Sequence record: OR999189.1
Length of the DNA stretch: 64,000 nucleotides
Strand: one strand, 5' to 3'
Origin: Enterobacteria phage P922
Of the stretch, positions 11,886 to 18,380 are shown piece by piece. How positions within the stretch are numbered: the stretch's first letter is position 1; the number at the start of each line of letters is the position of its first letter. The notes under the pieces are model-generated. The model saw nothing but the letters and a program-made list of their open reading frames with translations, had not been told where the DNA came from and did no database searches. The position numbers and the translations under genes are program-made.

Positions 11886-12154
11886 TGTTTGTTGTTCATA
11901 CTATTTATGAAAATGAAGGTAATACTACACGTGATTACGGCCACGTAAATCAATTTTTTAGATGCAATCCAGAATTCCGAGCTCAAAAAGACGAACGAAT
12001 TTTTAAAAAATGTGTAGAACAAGGTTTCATTTACGTCAAGCACTGGATGCAAGGAAATAAAGTTAGAACTACATATCATAAGTCTTTGCCTGAGCTTAAT
12101 GATGAATTGATTTATAATAGAGCTGTAAACCAAACCCTGAAGGATGAGCAATGA
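11885..12154 (+). CDS. Hypothetical small protein, 89 aa (T4 30.1 position)
   Basis: ORF coupled to ligase gene. Confidence 0.5.
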   Translation: MFVVHTIYENEGNTTRDYGHVNQFFRCNPEFRAQKDERIFKKCVEQGFIYVKHWMQGNKVRTTYHKSLPELNDELIYNRAVNQTLKDEQ

Positions 12155-13611
12155 TTCTTAAAATTCTGAATGAAATAGCATCTATTGGATCAACTAAACA
12201 GAAGCAAGCAATTCTTGAAAAGAATAAAGATAATGAATTGCTTAAACGAGTATATCGTCTGACTTATTCTCGTGGGTTACAGTATTATATCAAGAAATGG
12301 CCTAAACCTGGTATTGCTACCCAGAGTTTTGGAATGCTGACTATTACTGATATGCTTGACTTCATTGAATTCACGTTAGCTACTCGGAAATTAACTGGCA
12401 ATGCAGCAATTGAGGAATTAACTGGATATATCACCGATGGTAAAAAGGATGATGTTGAAGTTTTGCGTCGAGTTATGATGCGAGACCTTGAATGTGGTGC
12501 TTCAGTATCTATTGCAAACAAAGTTTGGCCAGGTTTAATTCCTGAACAACCTCAAATGCTGGCAAGTTCTTATGATGAAAAAGGCATTAGTAAGAATATC
12601 AAGTTTCCAGCCTTTGCGCAGTTAAAAGCAGACGGAGCTCGGTGTTTTGCTGAAGTCCGAGGCGATGAATTAGATGATGTTCGTCTTTTATCACGAGCTG
12701 GTAATGAATATCTAGGATTAGATCTTCTTAAGGAAGAGTTAATCAAAATGACTGCTGAAGCCCGCCAGATTCATCCAGAAGGTGTGTTAATTGATGGCGA
12801 ATTGGTATACCATGAGCAAGTTGAAAAGGAACCAGAAGGCCTAGATTTTCTTTTTGATGCTACTGAAATCAGTAAAGCTAAAGACTTCACAGAAGTAGCT
12901 GAATCTCGTACTGCTTCTAATGGAATCGCTAATAAATCTTTAAAGGGAACCATTTCTGAAAAAGAAGCCAAATGCATGAAGTTTCAGGTCTGGGATTATG
13001 TCCCGTTGGTAGAAATATACGGTCTTCCGGCGTTTCGTTTAAAATATGATGTACGTTTTTCTAAACTAGAACAAATGACATCAGGATATGATAAAGTAAT
13101 TTTAATTGAAAACCAGGTAGTAAATAACCTAGATGAAGCTAAGGTAATTTATAAAAAATATATTGACCGAGGTCTTGAAGGTATTATTCTCAAAAATACC
13201 GATGGATTGTGGGAAAATGCTCGTTCAAAAAATCTCTATAAATTTAAAGAAGTAATTGATGTTGATTTAAAAATTGTAGGAATTTATCCTCACCGTAAAG
13301 ACCCTACTAAAGCAGGTGGATTTATTCTTGAATCAGAATGCGGAAAAATTAAAGTAAACGCTGGTTCAGGTTTAAAAGATAAAGCTGGTGTAAAATCACA
13401 TGAACTTGACCGTACTCGCATTATGGAAAACCAAAATTATTATATTGGAAAAATTCTAGAGTGCGAATGCAATGGTTGGTTAAAATCTGATGGCCGCACT
13501 GATTACGTTAAATTATTTCTTCCAATTGCGATTCGTTTACGTGAAGATAAAACTAAAGCTAATACATTCGAGGATGTATTTGGTGATTTTCATGAGGTAA
13601 CTGGTCTATGA
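12151..13611 (+). CDS. 30: ATP-dependent DNA ligase, 486 aa
   Basis: Adenylation motif KADGAR (AQLKADGARCF); length matches T4 gp30 (487 aa). Confidence 0.95.
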   Translation: MILKILNEIASIGSTKQKQAILEKNKDNELLKRVYRLTYSRGLQYYIKKWPKPGIATQSFGMLTITDMLDFIEFTLATRKLTGNAAIEELTGYITDGKKDDVEVLRRVMMRDLECGASVSIANKVWPGLIPEQPQMLASSYDEKGISKNIKFPAFAQLKADGARCFAEVRGDELDDVRLLSRAGNEYLGLDLLKEELIKMTAEARQIHPEGVLIDGELVYHEQVEKEPEGLDFLFDATEISKAKDFTEVAESRTASNGIANKSLKGTISEKEAKCMKFQVWDYVPLVEIYGLPAFRLKYDVRFSKLEQMTSGYDKVILIENQVVNNLDEAKVIYKKYIDRGLEGIILKNTDGLWENARSKNLYKFKEVIDVDLKIVGIYPHRKDPTKAGGFILESECGKIKVNAGSGLKDKAGVKSHELDRTRIMENQNYYIGKILECECNGWLKSDGRTDYVKLFLPIAIRLREDKTKANTFEDVFGDFHEVTGL

Positions 13612-13796
13612 AAGCTTACTTAGAAACAATTGTCGTTGCTCAAAAAGAAGGTGGAGATGTTTCTACTTCTGTATCACAAATCGTTCTTGAATTTGTAGAT
13701 GCATATGCTTATAATAAATTTACAGAAACATTTGATGCCTATGAAAAAGGTCCGAAGTTTGAAATATACCGTACTCTCTTACCACTAGATTATTAA
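13608..13796 (+). CDS. Hypothetical small protein, 62 aa
   Basis: ORF overlapping ligase stop (ATGA). Confidence 0.5.
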   Translation: MKAYLETIVVAQKEGGDVSTSVSQIVLEFVDAYAYNKFTETFDAYEKGPKFEIYRTLLPLDY

Positions 13797-13820
13797 AGGC
13801 CTTCGGGCCTTTAATTTTAT
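13795..13820 (+). terminator. Hairpin terminator (AAAGGCC-TTCG-GGCCTTT) plus T-rich tail
   Basis: Read directly. Confidence 0.6.
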
Positions 13821-13825
13821 AAATA
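13818..13825 (+). promoter_or_regulatory. Late promoter TATAAATA upstream of alt
   Basis: Exact TATAAATA about 20 bp upstream of alt ATG; Alt is a packaged virion protein so late expression is expected. Confidence 0.55.
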
Positions 13826-13848
13826 GAATAAACACTAGAGAGGATATG

Positions 13849-15942
13849 ATGGAACTCATTACAGAATTATTTGACGAAGATACTACTCTTCCGATTACAA
13901 ACTTAAATCCAAAGAAGAAAATACCGCAAATTTTTTCAGTTCATGTTGATGACGCAATTGAACAACCAGGCTTTCGTTTATGTACCTATACATCTGGAGG
14001 TGATACTAATCGCGATTTAAAAATGGGCGATAAAATGATGCATATTGTTCCTTTTACATTAACTGCTAAAGGTTCAATTGCTAAATTAAAAGGTCTCGGT
14101 CCAAGCCCAATTAATTATATCAATTCAGTTTTTACTGTTGCAATGCAGACGATGCGTCAGTATAAAATTGATGCCTGTATGCTCCGTATTCTTAAGTCTA
14201 AAACTGCTGGTCAAGCTCGACAAATTCAAGTTATTGCTGATAGACTTATCCGTAGTCGTTCAGGTGGCAGATACGTCCTTCTTAAGGAACTCTGGGATTA
14301 CGATAAAAAGTATGCATATATTCTTATACATCGCAAAAATGTATCACTAGAAGACATTCCAGGAGTTCCGGAAATTAGTACCGAGCTCTTTACTAAAGTT
14401 GAATCGAAAGTCGGCGATGTTTATATCAATAAAGATACTGGTGCTCAAGTAACTAAAAATGAGGCAATTGCAGCATCTATTGCGCAAGAAAATGATAAAC
14501 GCTCTGACCAAGCTGTAATCGTTAAAGTTAAAATTTCCCGTAGAGCAATTGCGCAAAGTCAATCATTAGAATCTTCTAGATTTGAAAGCGAATTATTCCA
14601 GAAGTATGAATCTACTGCAGCTAATTTCAATAAACCTGCTACTGCTCCTTTAATTCCAGAAGCAGAAGAAATGAAGCTTGGAATTAATTCATTAGCTTCT
14701 AAAACTAAGGCAGCAAAAATTATTGCTGAAGGAACTGCAGATGAACTTCACTATGACTATAAATTCTTTTCAAAAAGTGAGGTTAATGAAGTTTCTGAAA
14801 AAATTAAAGATGTAATTCTTAATGCGATTAAAAATGAACCAACTACTTCAATAAAATGTTTAGAGAAATACGCAGCAGCTGTTAATAAATTCTTTGAAGA
14901 ATACAAAGATAAATGGCTTGATAAACATAATAAAACCCGTAAAGGACAGCCAGATGAAGTCTGGGAAGAAATAACTAAAAATTCCTGGAACGCAGCAAAA
15001 ACTAAATTCCTCAAACGAATGATTTATAGTTTTTCTGGAATTGGTGCAGGTCCAATGATTGATATTACCATTGCACGCGATGGTTCTAAATATACTCCAT
15101 CGCAAAAGCGCGGCATTAGAGAGTATTGTGGATCAGGATATACTGACATCAATAATCTTCTTTTAGGCCGCTACAATCCAGAACGATATGATGTAATGAG
15201 TGAAAAAGAAATTGAATCTGCTATAAATAACTTAGATTCAGCTTTTGAAAATGGTGACCGTATACCAGAAGGCATTACAGTTTATCGTGCTCAAAGTATG
15301 ACTGCTCCTATATACGAAGCACTAGTTAAAAATAAAGTGTTCTATTTCAGAAATTTTGTATCTACTTCTTTAACTCCTATCATTTTTGGACGTTTTGGAA
15401 TTACACATGCTGGTATTGGTCTTTTAGAACCAGAAGCTCGTAATGAATTGACAGTTGATAAAAATGAAGAAGGAATAACTATTAATCCAAACGAAATAAG
15501 AGCGTATAAAGAAAATCCTGAATACGTTAAAGTTCAAATAGGATGGGCAATTGATGGAGCTCATAAAGTTAATGTTGTATATCCAGGAAGTCTCGGAATA
15601 GCAACAGAAGCTGAAGTTATTCTACCGCGCGGATTGATGGTCAAAGTTAATAAAATAACTGATGCTTCTAATAATGACGGAACAACATCTAATAATACAA
15701 AACTCATTCAAGCTGAAGTTATGACTACAGAAGAACTCACCGAATCAGTAATTTATGATGGAGACCATTTAATGGAAACTGGTGAAGTAGTTGCAATGAC
15801 AGGTGATATTGAAATAGAAGACAGAGTTGACTTTGCATCATTTGTTTCATCAAACGTTAAACAGAAAGTAGAATCATCTCTTGGAATTATTGCGTCTTGC
15901 ATAGATATTACAAACATGCCTTACAAGTTCGTTCAAGGATAA
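13849..15942 (+). CDS. alt: Alt ADP-ribosyltransferase (packaged, injected), 697 aa
   Basis: N-terminus MELITELFDEDTTLPITNL matches recalled T4 Alt; ART-like R/STS/EAE motifs (TVYRAQ, FVSTSL, EAEVILPRG). Confidence 0.9.
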   Translation: MELITELFDEDTTLPITNLNPKKKIPQIFSVHVDDAIEQPGFRLCTYTSGGDTNRDLKMGDKMMHIVPFTLTAKGSIAKLKGLGPSPINYINSVFTVAMQTMRQYKIDACMLRILKSKTAGQARQIQVIADRLIRSRSGGRYVLLKELWDYDKKYAYILIHRKNVSLEDIPGVPEISTELFTKVESKVGDVYINKDTGAQVTKNEAIAASIAQENDKRSDQAVIVKVKISRRAIAQSQSLESSRFESELFQKYESTAANFNKPATAPLIPEAEEMKLGINSLASKTKAAKIIAEGTADELHYDYKFFSKSEVNEVSEKIKDVILNAIKNEPTTSIKCLEKYAAAVNKFFEEYKDKWLDKHNKTRKGQPDEVWEEITKNSWNAAKTKFLKRMIYSFSGIGAGPMIDITIARDGSKYTPSQKRGIREYCGSGYTDINNLLLGRYNPERYDVMSEKEIESAINNLDSAFENGDRIPEGITVYRAQSMTAPIYEALVKNKVFYFRNFVSTSLTPIIFGRFGITHAGIGLLEPEARNELTVDKNEEGITINPNEIRAYKENPEYVKVQIGWAIDGAHKVNVVYPGSLGIATEAEVILPRGLMVKVNKITDASNNDGTTSNNTKLIQAEVMTTEELTESVIYDGDHLMETGEVVAMTGDIEIEDRVDFASFVSSNVKQKVESSLGIIASCIDITNMPYKFVQG

Positions 15943-15945
15943 ATC

Positions 15946-18003
15946 ATGGAACTTATTACAGAATTATTTGACGGCGCTTCGGCGCCGGTTGTTAACTTAA
16001 ACCCGAAGCATAAAATACCTCAAATTTTTGCTATTCAAGCAGGTGAAGAAAGCGTGCTTCCTGGATTTAGATTTTGTACATACACCTCTGGCGGTGATAC
16101 AAATAAAAACGTTAAGCCAGGCGATAAAATGATGCATATCGTAATGATAGGTGTCAATGAAAAGCTATCATTAGTTAAACTTAAAAACTTAGGTGGAAAT
16201 CCAATTGGTGTCATTAATGCGGTTTTTGATACTGCTCTTCAAACAATGAAACAGTATAAAATTGATGCATGCTTATTCCGCGTACTAAAGAGCAAAACAA
16301 ATGGAGCTGCTCGTCAAATGCAAGTTATTGCCGACCGTTTAGTACGTACTAAAGGAGCAGGTCGATATGTTCTTTTAAAGGAAATCTGGGACTATGATAA
16401 GAAATATGCATATATTATGGTTTACCGCAAAAATGCCAATTTAGAAGACATTCCAGGTGTACCTCCTATTTCAACTGAGTTATTCACAAAGGTTGAATCA
16501 AAGGTTGGTGATGTTTATGTAGATGTTAAAACAGGTAATGCTGTTCCTAAAGCTGTTGCTGTTGCTGCTTCTATTGCTTTAGAAAATGATAAGCGCACAG
16601 ATCAAGCTGTAATTCAGAAAACTAAAATTAGTCGTCGATTAGCAGCACAAGCTCAATACTCTACTGTCGATGCTTCACTTCAGGGTGATAGCTTCGCCGC
16701 TAAGAAATATCAAGAGTTTGAATCTAAAGTTCCGGTATATAAAGCAGAAGGACCAATGAACTCCGGCGTTATTCAGGTTGGTTCAAACTTCAGCAAAGGA
16801 GCTATCGGTGGTATGAGGAGTGCTTCTCGTTTTAAATCTAGTGATTATGAACTAGAAAGCTTCCGAAATCATATTGCATTGGCCCATGCGCGTTTACGTG
16901 ATCCATCTATTAAATTACAGAGCGATATAACATATCAAGGTTCTCAAGAATATTTAAAGAATAAAGAATTTTTTGATTATAAAACTGATAAAATTTTAAG
17001 CGATCTTGCTGACATTAATATTTCTAATAGCTTTGATGTTATTAAGAAAATTGTCAATGATTTAGTTAAAGGTTCTAAAGCCACGCCAGACGAAAAGGTA
17101 GCTATTGTTCAATTTGTCATGAATGGCATTTATAAATTGATTAATGAGTCTGCTTCTCAAGCGTATGAATATGCAAGTACTGAAGTACCCCCAAAAGGAT
17201 TAACTCAGGCTGAGTCTGATGTAATTGAAGATTATTGCGCGGATTCATATGTTGAAATGAACTCGTTCCTTTTAGGTAAACCGGATTCTACTCGTGAAGA
17301 ATACATGGAACGAGCTATTAAACACATCGAGACAATGGATTCTGCCTTTGCCAAAGGATCAGTTCTTCCTCCAGGAACTACGCTTTATCGTGGACAAGAA
17401 GTTACCTTTAAAACTTTACGTCATAATATTGAAAATAAAATGTTCTATTTTAAGAACTTCGTATCCACATCGCTTAAACCAAATATCTTCGGTGAGTATG
17501 GTAAAAACTATATGGCTCTAGATGATTCCAGTACAGTATTTTCTGGTGAAGGAGAAGGTTCAGTTGACGCAGAAGATTTGATGCATATGGGCAGTCATTC
17601 TTCTTATGCGAATGAAGATGCTGAAACTAGCGTGGGTATGGTAATTAAAGGAGCTGAGCGAATCAAAGTTATCGTTCCGGGTCATTTATCAGGATTTCCA
17701 TCAGAAGCTGAAGTTATTTTACCACGTGGAATTTTGCTGAAGATTAATAAAGTGAGTACGTACATGATGAAAGAAACTGCTTATAACAAGTATTTAATCG
17801 AAGGCACAATCGTTCCTCCTTCTGAACAATTAGAAGAATCGGTATATGATGGCGATCATCTGATGGAAACTGGTGAAGTTCGTCCAATGGCTGGGTTTAA
17901 TCAATTCCTTGTAGAAGAATCAAAAGAAGAGGAAAACGAAGTTTCTCAAATCTTAGCTTCTTTGGTTAACATCAACGGAATGTCTAAAAAGTTCAAGATG
18001 TAG
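15946..18003 (+). CDS. Alt-like ADP-ribosyltransferase paralog, 685 aa
   Basis: Same N-terminus MELITELFD, conserved blocks and ART motifs (TLYRGQ, FVSTSL, EAEVILPRG), divergent middle; starts 3 bp after alt stop. Confidence 0.85.
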   Translation: MELITELFDGASAPVVNLNPKHKIPQIFAIQAGEESVLPGFRFCTYTSGGDTNKNVKPGDKMMHIVMIGVNEKLSLVKLKNLGGNPIGVINAVFDTALQTMKQYKIDACLFRVLKSKTNGAARQMQVIADRLVRTKGAGRYVLLKEIWDYDKKYAYIMVYRKNANLEDIPGVPPISTELFTKVESKVGDVYVDVKTGNAVPKAVAVAASIALENDKRTDQAVIQKTKISRRLAAQAQYSTVDASLQGDSFAAKKYQEFESKVPVYKAEGPMNSGVIQVGSNFSKGAIGGMRSASRFKSSDYELESFRNHIALAHARLRDPSIKLQSDITYQGSQEYLKNKEFFDYKTDKILSDLADINISNSFDVIKKIVNDLVKGSKATPDEKVAIVQFVMNGIYKLINESASQAYEYASTEVPPKGLTQAESDVIEDYCADSYVEMNSFLLGKPDSTREEYMERAIKHIETMDSAFAKGSVLPPGTTLYRGQEVTFKTLRHNIENKMFYFKNFVSTSLKPNIFGEYGKNYMALDDSSTVFSGEGEGSVDAEDLMHMGSHSSYANEDAETSVGMVIKGAERIKVIVPGHLSGFPSEAEVILPRGILLKINKVSTYMMKETAYNKYLIEGTIVPPSEQLEESVYDGDHLMETGEVRPMAGFNQFLVEESKEEENEVSQILASLVNINGMSKKFKM

Positions 18004-18056
18004 TTTACAAGTCCCTCGTGTTGTGTTATAATAATTTTACTTACATAACATGAGGA
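18003..18056 (+). promoter_or_regulatory. T4-type early promoter cassette (GTTTAC, 17 bp, TATAAT), near-identical to cassette at 2196
   Basis: 28 bp identical to 2196-2223, followed by similar AACATGAGG SD-containing arm. Confidence 0.6.
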
Positions 18057-18063
18057 ACACAAA

Positions 18064-18354
18064 ATGAAATCTTCTTTACGCTTTTTAGGTCAAGAGCTTG
18101 TAGTTGAAGGCGTTATTCCTGCTGATAACGCTTTTAATGAAGCAGTTTACGATGAATTTATCAAAATTTTTGGAACAGATAAAAAGTTCGGAATTTTTCC
18201 TTCTGAAAATTTCTCAAAGCCAGAACAGACTGAAAGCATTTTCCAGGGTGTAGTAACAGGTAAATTTGAGTCAGAAGCTCCGGTAAAAATTGAAGTTTAT
18301 ATTGAAGACAGTTTAGTTGCTTCAGTTGCTGCTTTTATTTCATTCCGTAAATAA
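18064..18354 (+). CDS. Hypothetical protein, 96 aa (downstream of alt)
   Basis: ORF with SD GAGGAA and own early promoter. Confidence 0.6.
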   Translation: MKSSLRFLGQELVVEGVIPADNAFNEAVYDEFIKIFGTDKKFGIFPSENFSKPEQTESIFQGVVTGKFESEAPVKIEVYIEDSLVASVAAFISFRK

Positions 18355-18358
18355 AAAT

Positions 18359-18380
18359 ATGGGGACCGAAAGGTCCCCAT
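18359..18380. terminator. Bidirectional hairpin between convergent early (+) and late (-) transcription units
   Basis: ATGGGGACC-GAAA-GGTCCCCAT perfect 9-bp stem. Confidence 0.6.

Follow-up and report, generated by a model that had tools for sequence, protein, structure and literature searches.

Our analysis of a 64,000-nucleotide stretch of Enterobacteria phage P922 (record OR999189.1; the whole stretch is called the window below) indicates that two tandem genes at the phage alt locus very probably encode two functional paralogs of T4 Alt: mono-ADP-ribosyltransferases that would be made as precursors of ~690 residues, be injected into the host, and likely act on different sets of substrates. 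A first-pass annotation made from the letters alone had proposed a tandem pair of Alt-type ADP-ribosyltransferase (ART) genes, and the pair is as it described: two plus-strand open reading frames (ORFs) lie 3 bp apart, encode 697 residues (copy 1) and 685 residues (copy 2), and both open with MELITELFD. BLASTP of copy 1 against copy 2 recovered every conserved block that had been quoted, and the pairwise alignment is far beyond chance (41% identity, 294/718; E = 2e-161).

Assignment of both proteins to the Alt family is supported by domain matches, catalytic motifs and, for copy 2, the predicted fold. Both show full-length homology to T4 Alt and match PHROG 802 ('Alt-like') over their full length (E = 4e-273 and 5e-255); both also exceed the cut-off (23.4 bits) of Pfam PF03496 (ADPrib_exo_Tox), copy 1 with E = 1.9e-37 from residue 378 and copy 2 with E = 2.6e-20 from residue 414, and the precomputed annotation of the copy-2 cluster carries PF26846 (Tevenvirinae_ADPRT) together with PF03496. 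Both genes occupy the position of the T4 Alt family on the same strand, with DNA ligase and alt.1 upstream and alt.-3 and gene 54 downstream, the gene order being that of T4. The Arg, STS and E-x-E motifs pointed out in the first-pass annotation are present in both copies, in the order and with the spacing expected of arginine-serine-glutamate (R-S-E) ARTs, and R482, S507, S509, E587 and E589 of copy 2 are invariant in an alignment of 15 diverse homologs with identities down to 42%. A profile built from these 15 homologs reaches C3-type, CPILE-a/BECa, Certhrax, CDTa and Vis chains in the PDB, and places 'YR' and 'E-x-E-v-I-L-P-R-G' on the catalytic Arg and Q/E-x-E of those ARTs; phmmer with copy 2 as a single sequence against PDB sequences gave no match. 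The predicted model of copy 2 matches solved ARTs, the closest fold being that of the arginine ART Vis, consistent with a C3/Vip2-type R-S-E mono-ADP-ribosyltransferase; copy 2 lacks neither the fold nor the catalytic residues, the point on which the earlier proposal had been made to depend. T4 Alt carrying the substitution E577A is catalytically dead (PMC11404850). Residue 577 is not a Glu in the GenBank numbering of T4 Alt, where the ExE motif is E574/E576; E577A equals the second Glu of the motif only when the extra upstream Met of an ATGATG start is counted.

The two copies also retain the processing signals of a packaged protein. T4 Alt is trimmed at both ends by the gp21 prohead protease, after ITE-6 and after LTE-619, as determined by mass spectrometry, and ~40 copies are present per T4 head (PMC5694885; reviewed in PMC9026906); the cut after LTE-619 takes 63 C-terminal residues off the protein (PMC5694885). 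The T4 Alt numbering used here reproduces both sites. At the motif level, both copies carry an N-terminal propeptide ending in ITE-6; the I-T-E prohead-protease site that had been recognized in their shared N terminus (MELITE) is the published T4 Alt cleavage site (PMC5694885), and LTE-632 of copy 1 and LEE-631 of copy 2 align with LTE-619 of T4 Alt. Because the gp21 site aligns just upstream, before SV(I)YDGD, the C-terminal block YDGDHLMETGEV, listed earlier among the shared blocks, is indeed conserved but belongs to the C-terminal propeptide, outside the mature enzyme; E631, Y634, D635, G636 and D637 are invariant across the 15 homologs. With both mapped T4 Alt prohead-protease sites retained in each copy, the two proteins would probably undergo packaging, trimming and injection. 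We infer that the N-terminal propeptide, the N-module (residues 7-235) and the start of the C-terminal propeptide form the head-targeting and processing apparatus; the need to match the scaffold and protease of the same phage would account for the conservation of the ends.

The earlier description of conserved ends with a divergent middle and tail is borne out by a sliding identity profile of the two copies: identity is ~53-83% over residues 1-235, 10-30% over residues 240-420, and 30-57% in the ART core, dipping to ~10% between STS and ExE; conservation returns in the YDGDHLMETGE block, and identity falls to ~20% over the final ~40 residues. By Nei-Gojobori estimates, which underlie all values of synonymous (dS) and nonsynonymous (dN) divergence given here, dS between copy 1 and copy 2 of the window has reached saturation (1.3-1.6) in all segments, the conserved N-module included. 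Recent gene conversion as the source of the conserved ends was rejected because dS is as saturated (~1.3-1.6) in the N-module as elsewhere; the shared ends would instead reflect selection on the protein, and the pair is, on these estimates, an old duplication.

The most plausible reading is that the conserved ends serve as packaging modules and that the variable middle is an exchangeable effector. Residues ~250-470 are all-helical in the copy-2 model, at moderate confidence; the STS-to-ExE interval, of 77-79 residues compared with ~36 in C3 exoenzyme, is the least conserved part of the enzyme and is poorly modelled (predicted local distance difference test, pLDDT, 52-59). The residue before ExE differs as well (G-F-P-S-E-A-E in copy 2, G-I-A-T-E-A-E in copy 1 and A-P-S-N-E-M-E in T4 Alt), and in C3-type enzymes the ADP-ribosylating turn-turn (ARTT) loop helps to set substrate choice. 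Given this difference, it is plausible, though no more than that, that the two enzymes have different target sets.

Copy 2 has the properties of a live gene. The window is from a Tequatrovirus (T2-like, T4 family), and the 4,158-bp stretch is matched by 539 phage records (top identity 98.8%, EcNP1 and Nami) that label it 'Alt-like RNA polymerase ADP-ribosyltransferase (x2)' or equivalent. The copy-2 protein recurs at 95% identity or more in 396 phage records, and its 90%-identity cluster has 772 member sequences. Between the window and T2, in which both alt genes are intact, dS is 0.285 and dN 0.012 for copy 2, with dN/dS of 0-0.09 in each of four segments; the values for copy 1 are 0.143 and 0.007. 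The interpretation of copy 2 as a pseudogene was rejected on both dN/dS and distribution.

The first-pass annotation had asked whether copy 2 is standard in T4; it is intact in T2 and most Tequatrovirus records, and T4 holds only a remnant of it, alt.-1/alt.-2. Downstream of alt in T4 (AF158101) lie two short ORFs, alt.-1 (61 residues) and alt.-2 (67 residues); according to the GenBank notes, the two combined resemble an old duplicate of the initial portion of alt. Of copy 2, T4 retains ~345 bp from the start and ~20 bp from the end at high identity: loss of one A from an A-run (window ~16104; AATAAAAACG becomes AATAAAACG in T4) splits the remnant into the two ORFs, and 1,699 bp between CTAAA(G/A)AG repeats have been deleted, so that only the final codons and the stop remain. 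Two PHROGs with the lengths of Alt.-1 and Alt.-2 (23015, 61 positions; 15247, 67 positions) score better against copy 2 (e-40 and e-38) than against copy 1 (e-21 and e-19). Of the 497 records matched by a 120-bp probe across the T4 deletion junction, 91 cover it at 80% or more, which, set beside the 396 records with copy 2, makes the intact pair the majority state and T4 the exception. Phage PM123, with a T4-type alt and an intact copy 2, probably resembles the ancestor of T4. A preprint on phage contingency loci does not mention the alt A-run.

Copy 1 had been said to match T4 Alt; this holds for its ends, which are nearly identical (~100% over residues 1-246 and ~93% over the C-terminal ~100 residues), but not for residues 247-585, which are only ~45% identical (70% overall). 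The corresponding dS values, 0.11 at the N terminus, 1.2-1.6 in the middle and ART domain and 0.39 at the C terminus, form a recombination signature. The window-type copy-1 middle occurs at 95% identity or more in 315 records; T4-type phages are at ~43-44%. Exchange of such cassettes extends across genera. Dhakavirus QL01, an Escherichia phage (L003, 4263-10523), has three tandem Alt-like genes of 694, 681 and 707 residues, each 3 bp apart, which lie, as in the window, between the ligase region and alt.-3/gene 54, and whose N-modules are genus-specific (42-46% identical to those of the window). The ART segment of its first gene (alt-a) is 94% identical to that of window copy 1, the N-modules only 46%, and copy 2 has its closest relative in the third QL01 gene (55% in the ART segment, 46% in the middle). 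That third gene reads S-A-S rather than S-T-S; W-R and E-Q-E occur in the second. On a metagenomic contig (L005, 4001-6055; Logan SRR24155011, protein P0006), a single 684-residue hybrid replaces the pair, with copy-1 sequence to residue 175 and copy-2 sequence from residue 193; the crossover lies within ISTELFTKVESKVGDVY, a block identical in copies 1 and 2. Taken together, the QL01 triple array, the L005 hybrid and the copy-1 mosaic suggest that the alt locus behaves as an expandable and collapsible array, i.e. a lineage-specific packaging chassis with exchangeable enzyme cassettes.

Late co-transcription of both copies is the simplest reading of the expression signals. The late-promoter consensus TATAAATA upstream of copy 1, whose promoter function rests on the established T4 late-promoter consensus, is found in identical sequence upstream of T4 alt, and at 13818 it probably drives both copies in one late transcript. 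Copy 1 has two in-frame ATGs, at 13846 (698 residues) and 13849 (697 residues), in the sequence GAGGATATGATGGAA; 13849 is the likelier start, giving 697 residues from MELITELFD, because the Shine-Dalgarno sequence GAGG (13840-13843) lies 5 nt from the second ATG and only 2 nt from the first, and because T4 alt, with the same ATGATG, is annotated from the second. The Shine-Dalgarno sequence of copy 2, AAGGA, sits within the 3' end of copy 1.

We propose the following course of events. Both genes would be transcribed late, and copy 2, beginning 3 bp past the copy-1 stop, would be translated from its own Shine-Dalgarno sequence. Each precursor would comprise the MELITE propeptide, the N-module, an all-helical middle (~236-420), a C3/Vip2-type ART domain (~421-631) and a C-terminal propeptide from SV(I)YDGDHLMETGE. 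The conserved ends would carry both precursors into the prohead core, where gp21 would remove the residues up to ITE-6 and those beyond LTE-632 (copy 1) or LEE-631 (copy 2); the resulting head proteins of ~625 residues would be injected with the DNA and catalyze NAD+-dependent mono-ADP-ribosylation of arginines in host proteins. T4 Alt modifies the RNA polymerase alpha subunit (Arg265), among other targets; different substrates would most likely be set by the helical middle, the long STS-to-ExE insert and the ARTT-loop residue before ExE.

Several observations weigh against parts of this proposal. There is no promoter in the 3-bp gap between the copies, and copy 2 is not immediately preceded by a late promoter; the one further TATAAATA ahead of it, at 15222 within copy 1, may be a chance occurrence, and we do not claim it as a promoter, the window holding 21 matches against ~9 expected with nothing backing that one. 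The ExE motif suggests arginine specificity rather than proving it, and T4 ModB, also an R-S-E ART, additionally attaches RNA chains. In the copy-2 model, the insert between STS and ExE and the tail at the C terminus are of low confidence (pLDDT 33-59), so that no structural statement on target recognition is safe. The literature searched yielded no phage in which copy 2 had been examined by virion proteomics, assayed for activity or linked to a target; a study of Yersinia Tequatrovirus phages does not discuss Alt (PMC7917993), and one on injected anti-restriction proteins makes no mention of it (PMC12373910). Moreover, copy 2 is dispensable: it was wrecked in the T4 lineage by the frameshift and the 1,699-bp deletion, it was merged with copy 1 in the L005 phage, and T4 grows well without it. 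This dispensability is what one would expect of a redundant duplicate heading for loss, in effect a future pseudogene that contributes nothing of its own, yet such a fate is improbable for a gene that is intact and full-length in ~400 records, has a dN/dS of ~0.04 at a dS of 0.285 against T2, keeps its catalytic residues and both processing motifs invariant, and has been retained since an old duplication (saturated dS), in company with related genera that retain two or three alt paralogs.

It could also be argued that copy 2 is packaged mainly as a structural protein of the head core, its ART activity being irrelevant or lost, as the N-module and C-terminal propeptide rather than the enzyme domain are the parts most conserved between the copies and Alt has been described in the literature as belonging to the head core (PMC11404850). 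We consider this more improbable still: R, STS and ExE are strictly kept in all aligned homologs (n = 15), the ART domain is itself under purifying selection (dN/dS 0.04 against T2), and Alt is non-essential for head assembly (PMC5694885). More room is left for a copy 2 that is injected and active on another class of substrate or in another role, such as neutralization of a defence system or toxin, modification of nucleic acids, or ModB-like RNA attachment. T4 Alt is reported to ADP-ribosylate the MazF toxin; the helical middle of copy 2 is only 10-20% identical to that of copy 1 or T4 Alt, and the STS-to-ExE insert ~10%; and whole cassettes move between genera, as expected of arms-race genes, viral ARTs having been described as fast-evolving conflict genes (PMC9503650). 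We nevertheless regard this as the lesser possibility, as the ExE motif and the closest fold match, Vis, point to ordinary protein-arginine modification and no defence-system link to copy 2 turned up in the literature searched. Modification of host-protein arginines by two injected Alt paralogs is the reading we retain.

Table 1. Coordinates of the alt pair, its parts and its neighbours in the window (aa, residues; bp, base pairs)
Feature	Position	Strand	Detail
DNA ligase	12151-13611
alt.1 homolog, 62 aa	13608-13796	+	Pfam PF24647 'Phage blade protein', E 1e-29
GC-rich hairpin AAAGGCC-TTCG-GGCCTTT	13795..13812	+	read directly; after alt.1, just upstream of alt promoter
Late-promoter consensus TATAAATA	13818..13825	+	upstream of copy 1
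Copy 1, alt ortholog, 697 aa	13849..15942	+	ORF list, Pfam, alignment to T4 Alt
Copy 1 N-terminal propeptide MELITE	13849-13866
Copy 1 N-module			aa 7-235
Copy 1 helical middle			aa 236-420
Copy 1 ART domain			aa 421-632
Copy 1 R480	15286-15288
Copy 1 STS (S505-T506-S507)	15361-15369
Copy 1 EAE (E587-A-E589)	15607-15615
Copy 1 LTE-632	15736-15744
Copy 1 C-terminal propeptide			aa 633-697
Copy 2, second Alt paralog, 685 aa	15946..18003	+
Copy 2 N-terminal propeptide MELITE	15946-15963
Copy 2 N-module			aa 7-235
Copy 2 helical middle			aa 236-420
Site of T4 frameshift, GATACAAATAAAAACG	16096..16111	+	one A lost from A-run in T4; splits remnant into alt.-1/alt.-2
Left 8-bp repeat CTAAAGAG	16285..16292	+	T4 deletion start
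Copy 2 ART domain			aa 421-631
Copy 2 R482	17389-17391
Copy 2 STS (S507-T508-S509)	17464-17472
Copy 2 EAE (E587-A-E589)	17704-17712
Copy 2 LEE-631	17830-17838
Copy 2 C-terminal propeptide			aa 632-685
Right 8-bp repeat CTAAAAAG	17984..17991	+	T4 deletion junction
Putative sigma-70/T4-early-type promoter	18004..18032	+	TTTACA, 17 nt spacer, TG, TATAAT; 11/12 matches
alt.-3 homolog, 96 aa, DUF5498	18064..18354	+	bounds alt array downstream; outside ART pair
Genes 54 and 48	downstream of alt.-3 homolog	opposite to alt genes

The surroundings of the pair (Table 1) contain further signals. The alt.1 homolog overlaps the 3' end of the ligase gene by 4 bp. The hairpin that follows alt.1 is the same element in T4 and was not reported by a consensus terminator scan. 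The early-type promoter, a strong and near-consensus one by sequence, begins right after the copy-2 stop codon and would serve alt.-3. At 18359-18380, between the converging alt.-3 and gene 54, lies a perfect 9-bp GC-rich hairpin (ATGGGGACC-GAAA-GGTCCCCAT), which the terminator scan rated terminator-like on both strands. Mutants of T4 with a C-terminal extension of Alt.-3 evade the CmdTAC defence by blocking CmdA degradation (PMC11618068).

The tandem alt pair is already known, both as an observation and as an idea, and is ordinary for the genus. T2, PP01, SHFML-11, 6phi13 and hundreds of other Tequatrovirus phages carry the same two genes at 97-99% DNA identity, with nothing material differing. 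Nolan et al. (2006) reported alt-adjacent paralogs in T4, RB49 and 44RR, with a full-length duplicate in 44RR (PMC1524935), and a 2026 paper on 6phi13 and SHFML-11 described 'two paralogous Alt-like proteins' of 43% identity and suggested functional divergence (PMC13600099). T4 Alt shares locus, length, domain order, the R-S-ExE site and both gp21 motifs with the window copies; it differs from copy 1 in carrying a different cassette allele over the middle and ART domain (residues 247-585), and from copy 2 throughout (42% identity, E = 8e-158), the direct counterpart of copy 2 being alt.-1/alt.-2, dead in T4 and intact in the window. The C3/Vip2/iota-type toxins Vis, Certhrax, CDTa and C3bot share the fold and the R / STS / (E/Q)xE motifs at 13-25% identity, but are secreted proteins of ~200-450 residues without the N-module, helical middle or propeptides. 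ModA and ModB of T4 are, unlike Alt, small, early-made and unpackaged, and ModB also RNAylates. Both are phage R-S-E ARTs of the same clade as Alt (PMC5512222). What our analysis adds is the exact lesion behind T4 alt.-1/alt.-2 and its frequency, the conservation of both gp21 sites, the identification of the C-terminal conserved block as propeptide, the strength of purifying selection, and the exchange of cassettes between genera; the literature searched held no experimental work on the second Alt enzyme.

Alt is the classic case of an enzyme that a phage delivers together with its DNA to reprogram the host, and because T4 has only the wreck of copy 2, almost everything known from experiment is about one enzyme; some four in five sequenced relatives at the locus (roughly 400 of 500 records) encode two. 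We tentatively entertain a broader possibility, which we hold to be somewhat doubtful, that most phages of the T4 genus inject two or three ADP-ribosyltransferases, that copy 2 has targets of its own, possibly a defence or stress protein, and that the alt locus is a chassis with swapped cassettes; a widespread activity in host takeover or counter-defence would in that case be missing from the view of 'alteration' built on T4. The combination of conserved packaging ends with an exchangeable enzyme cassette could serve protein delivery from the capsid. If the targets of copy 2 are distinct, host takeover by T-even phages, therapeutic candidates included, would be richer than the T4 model suggests.

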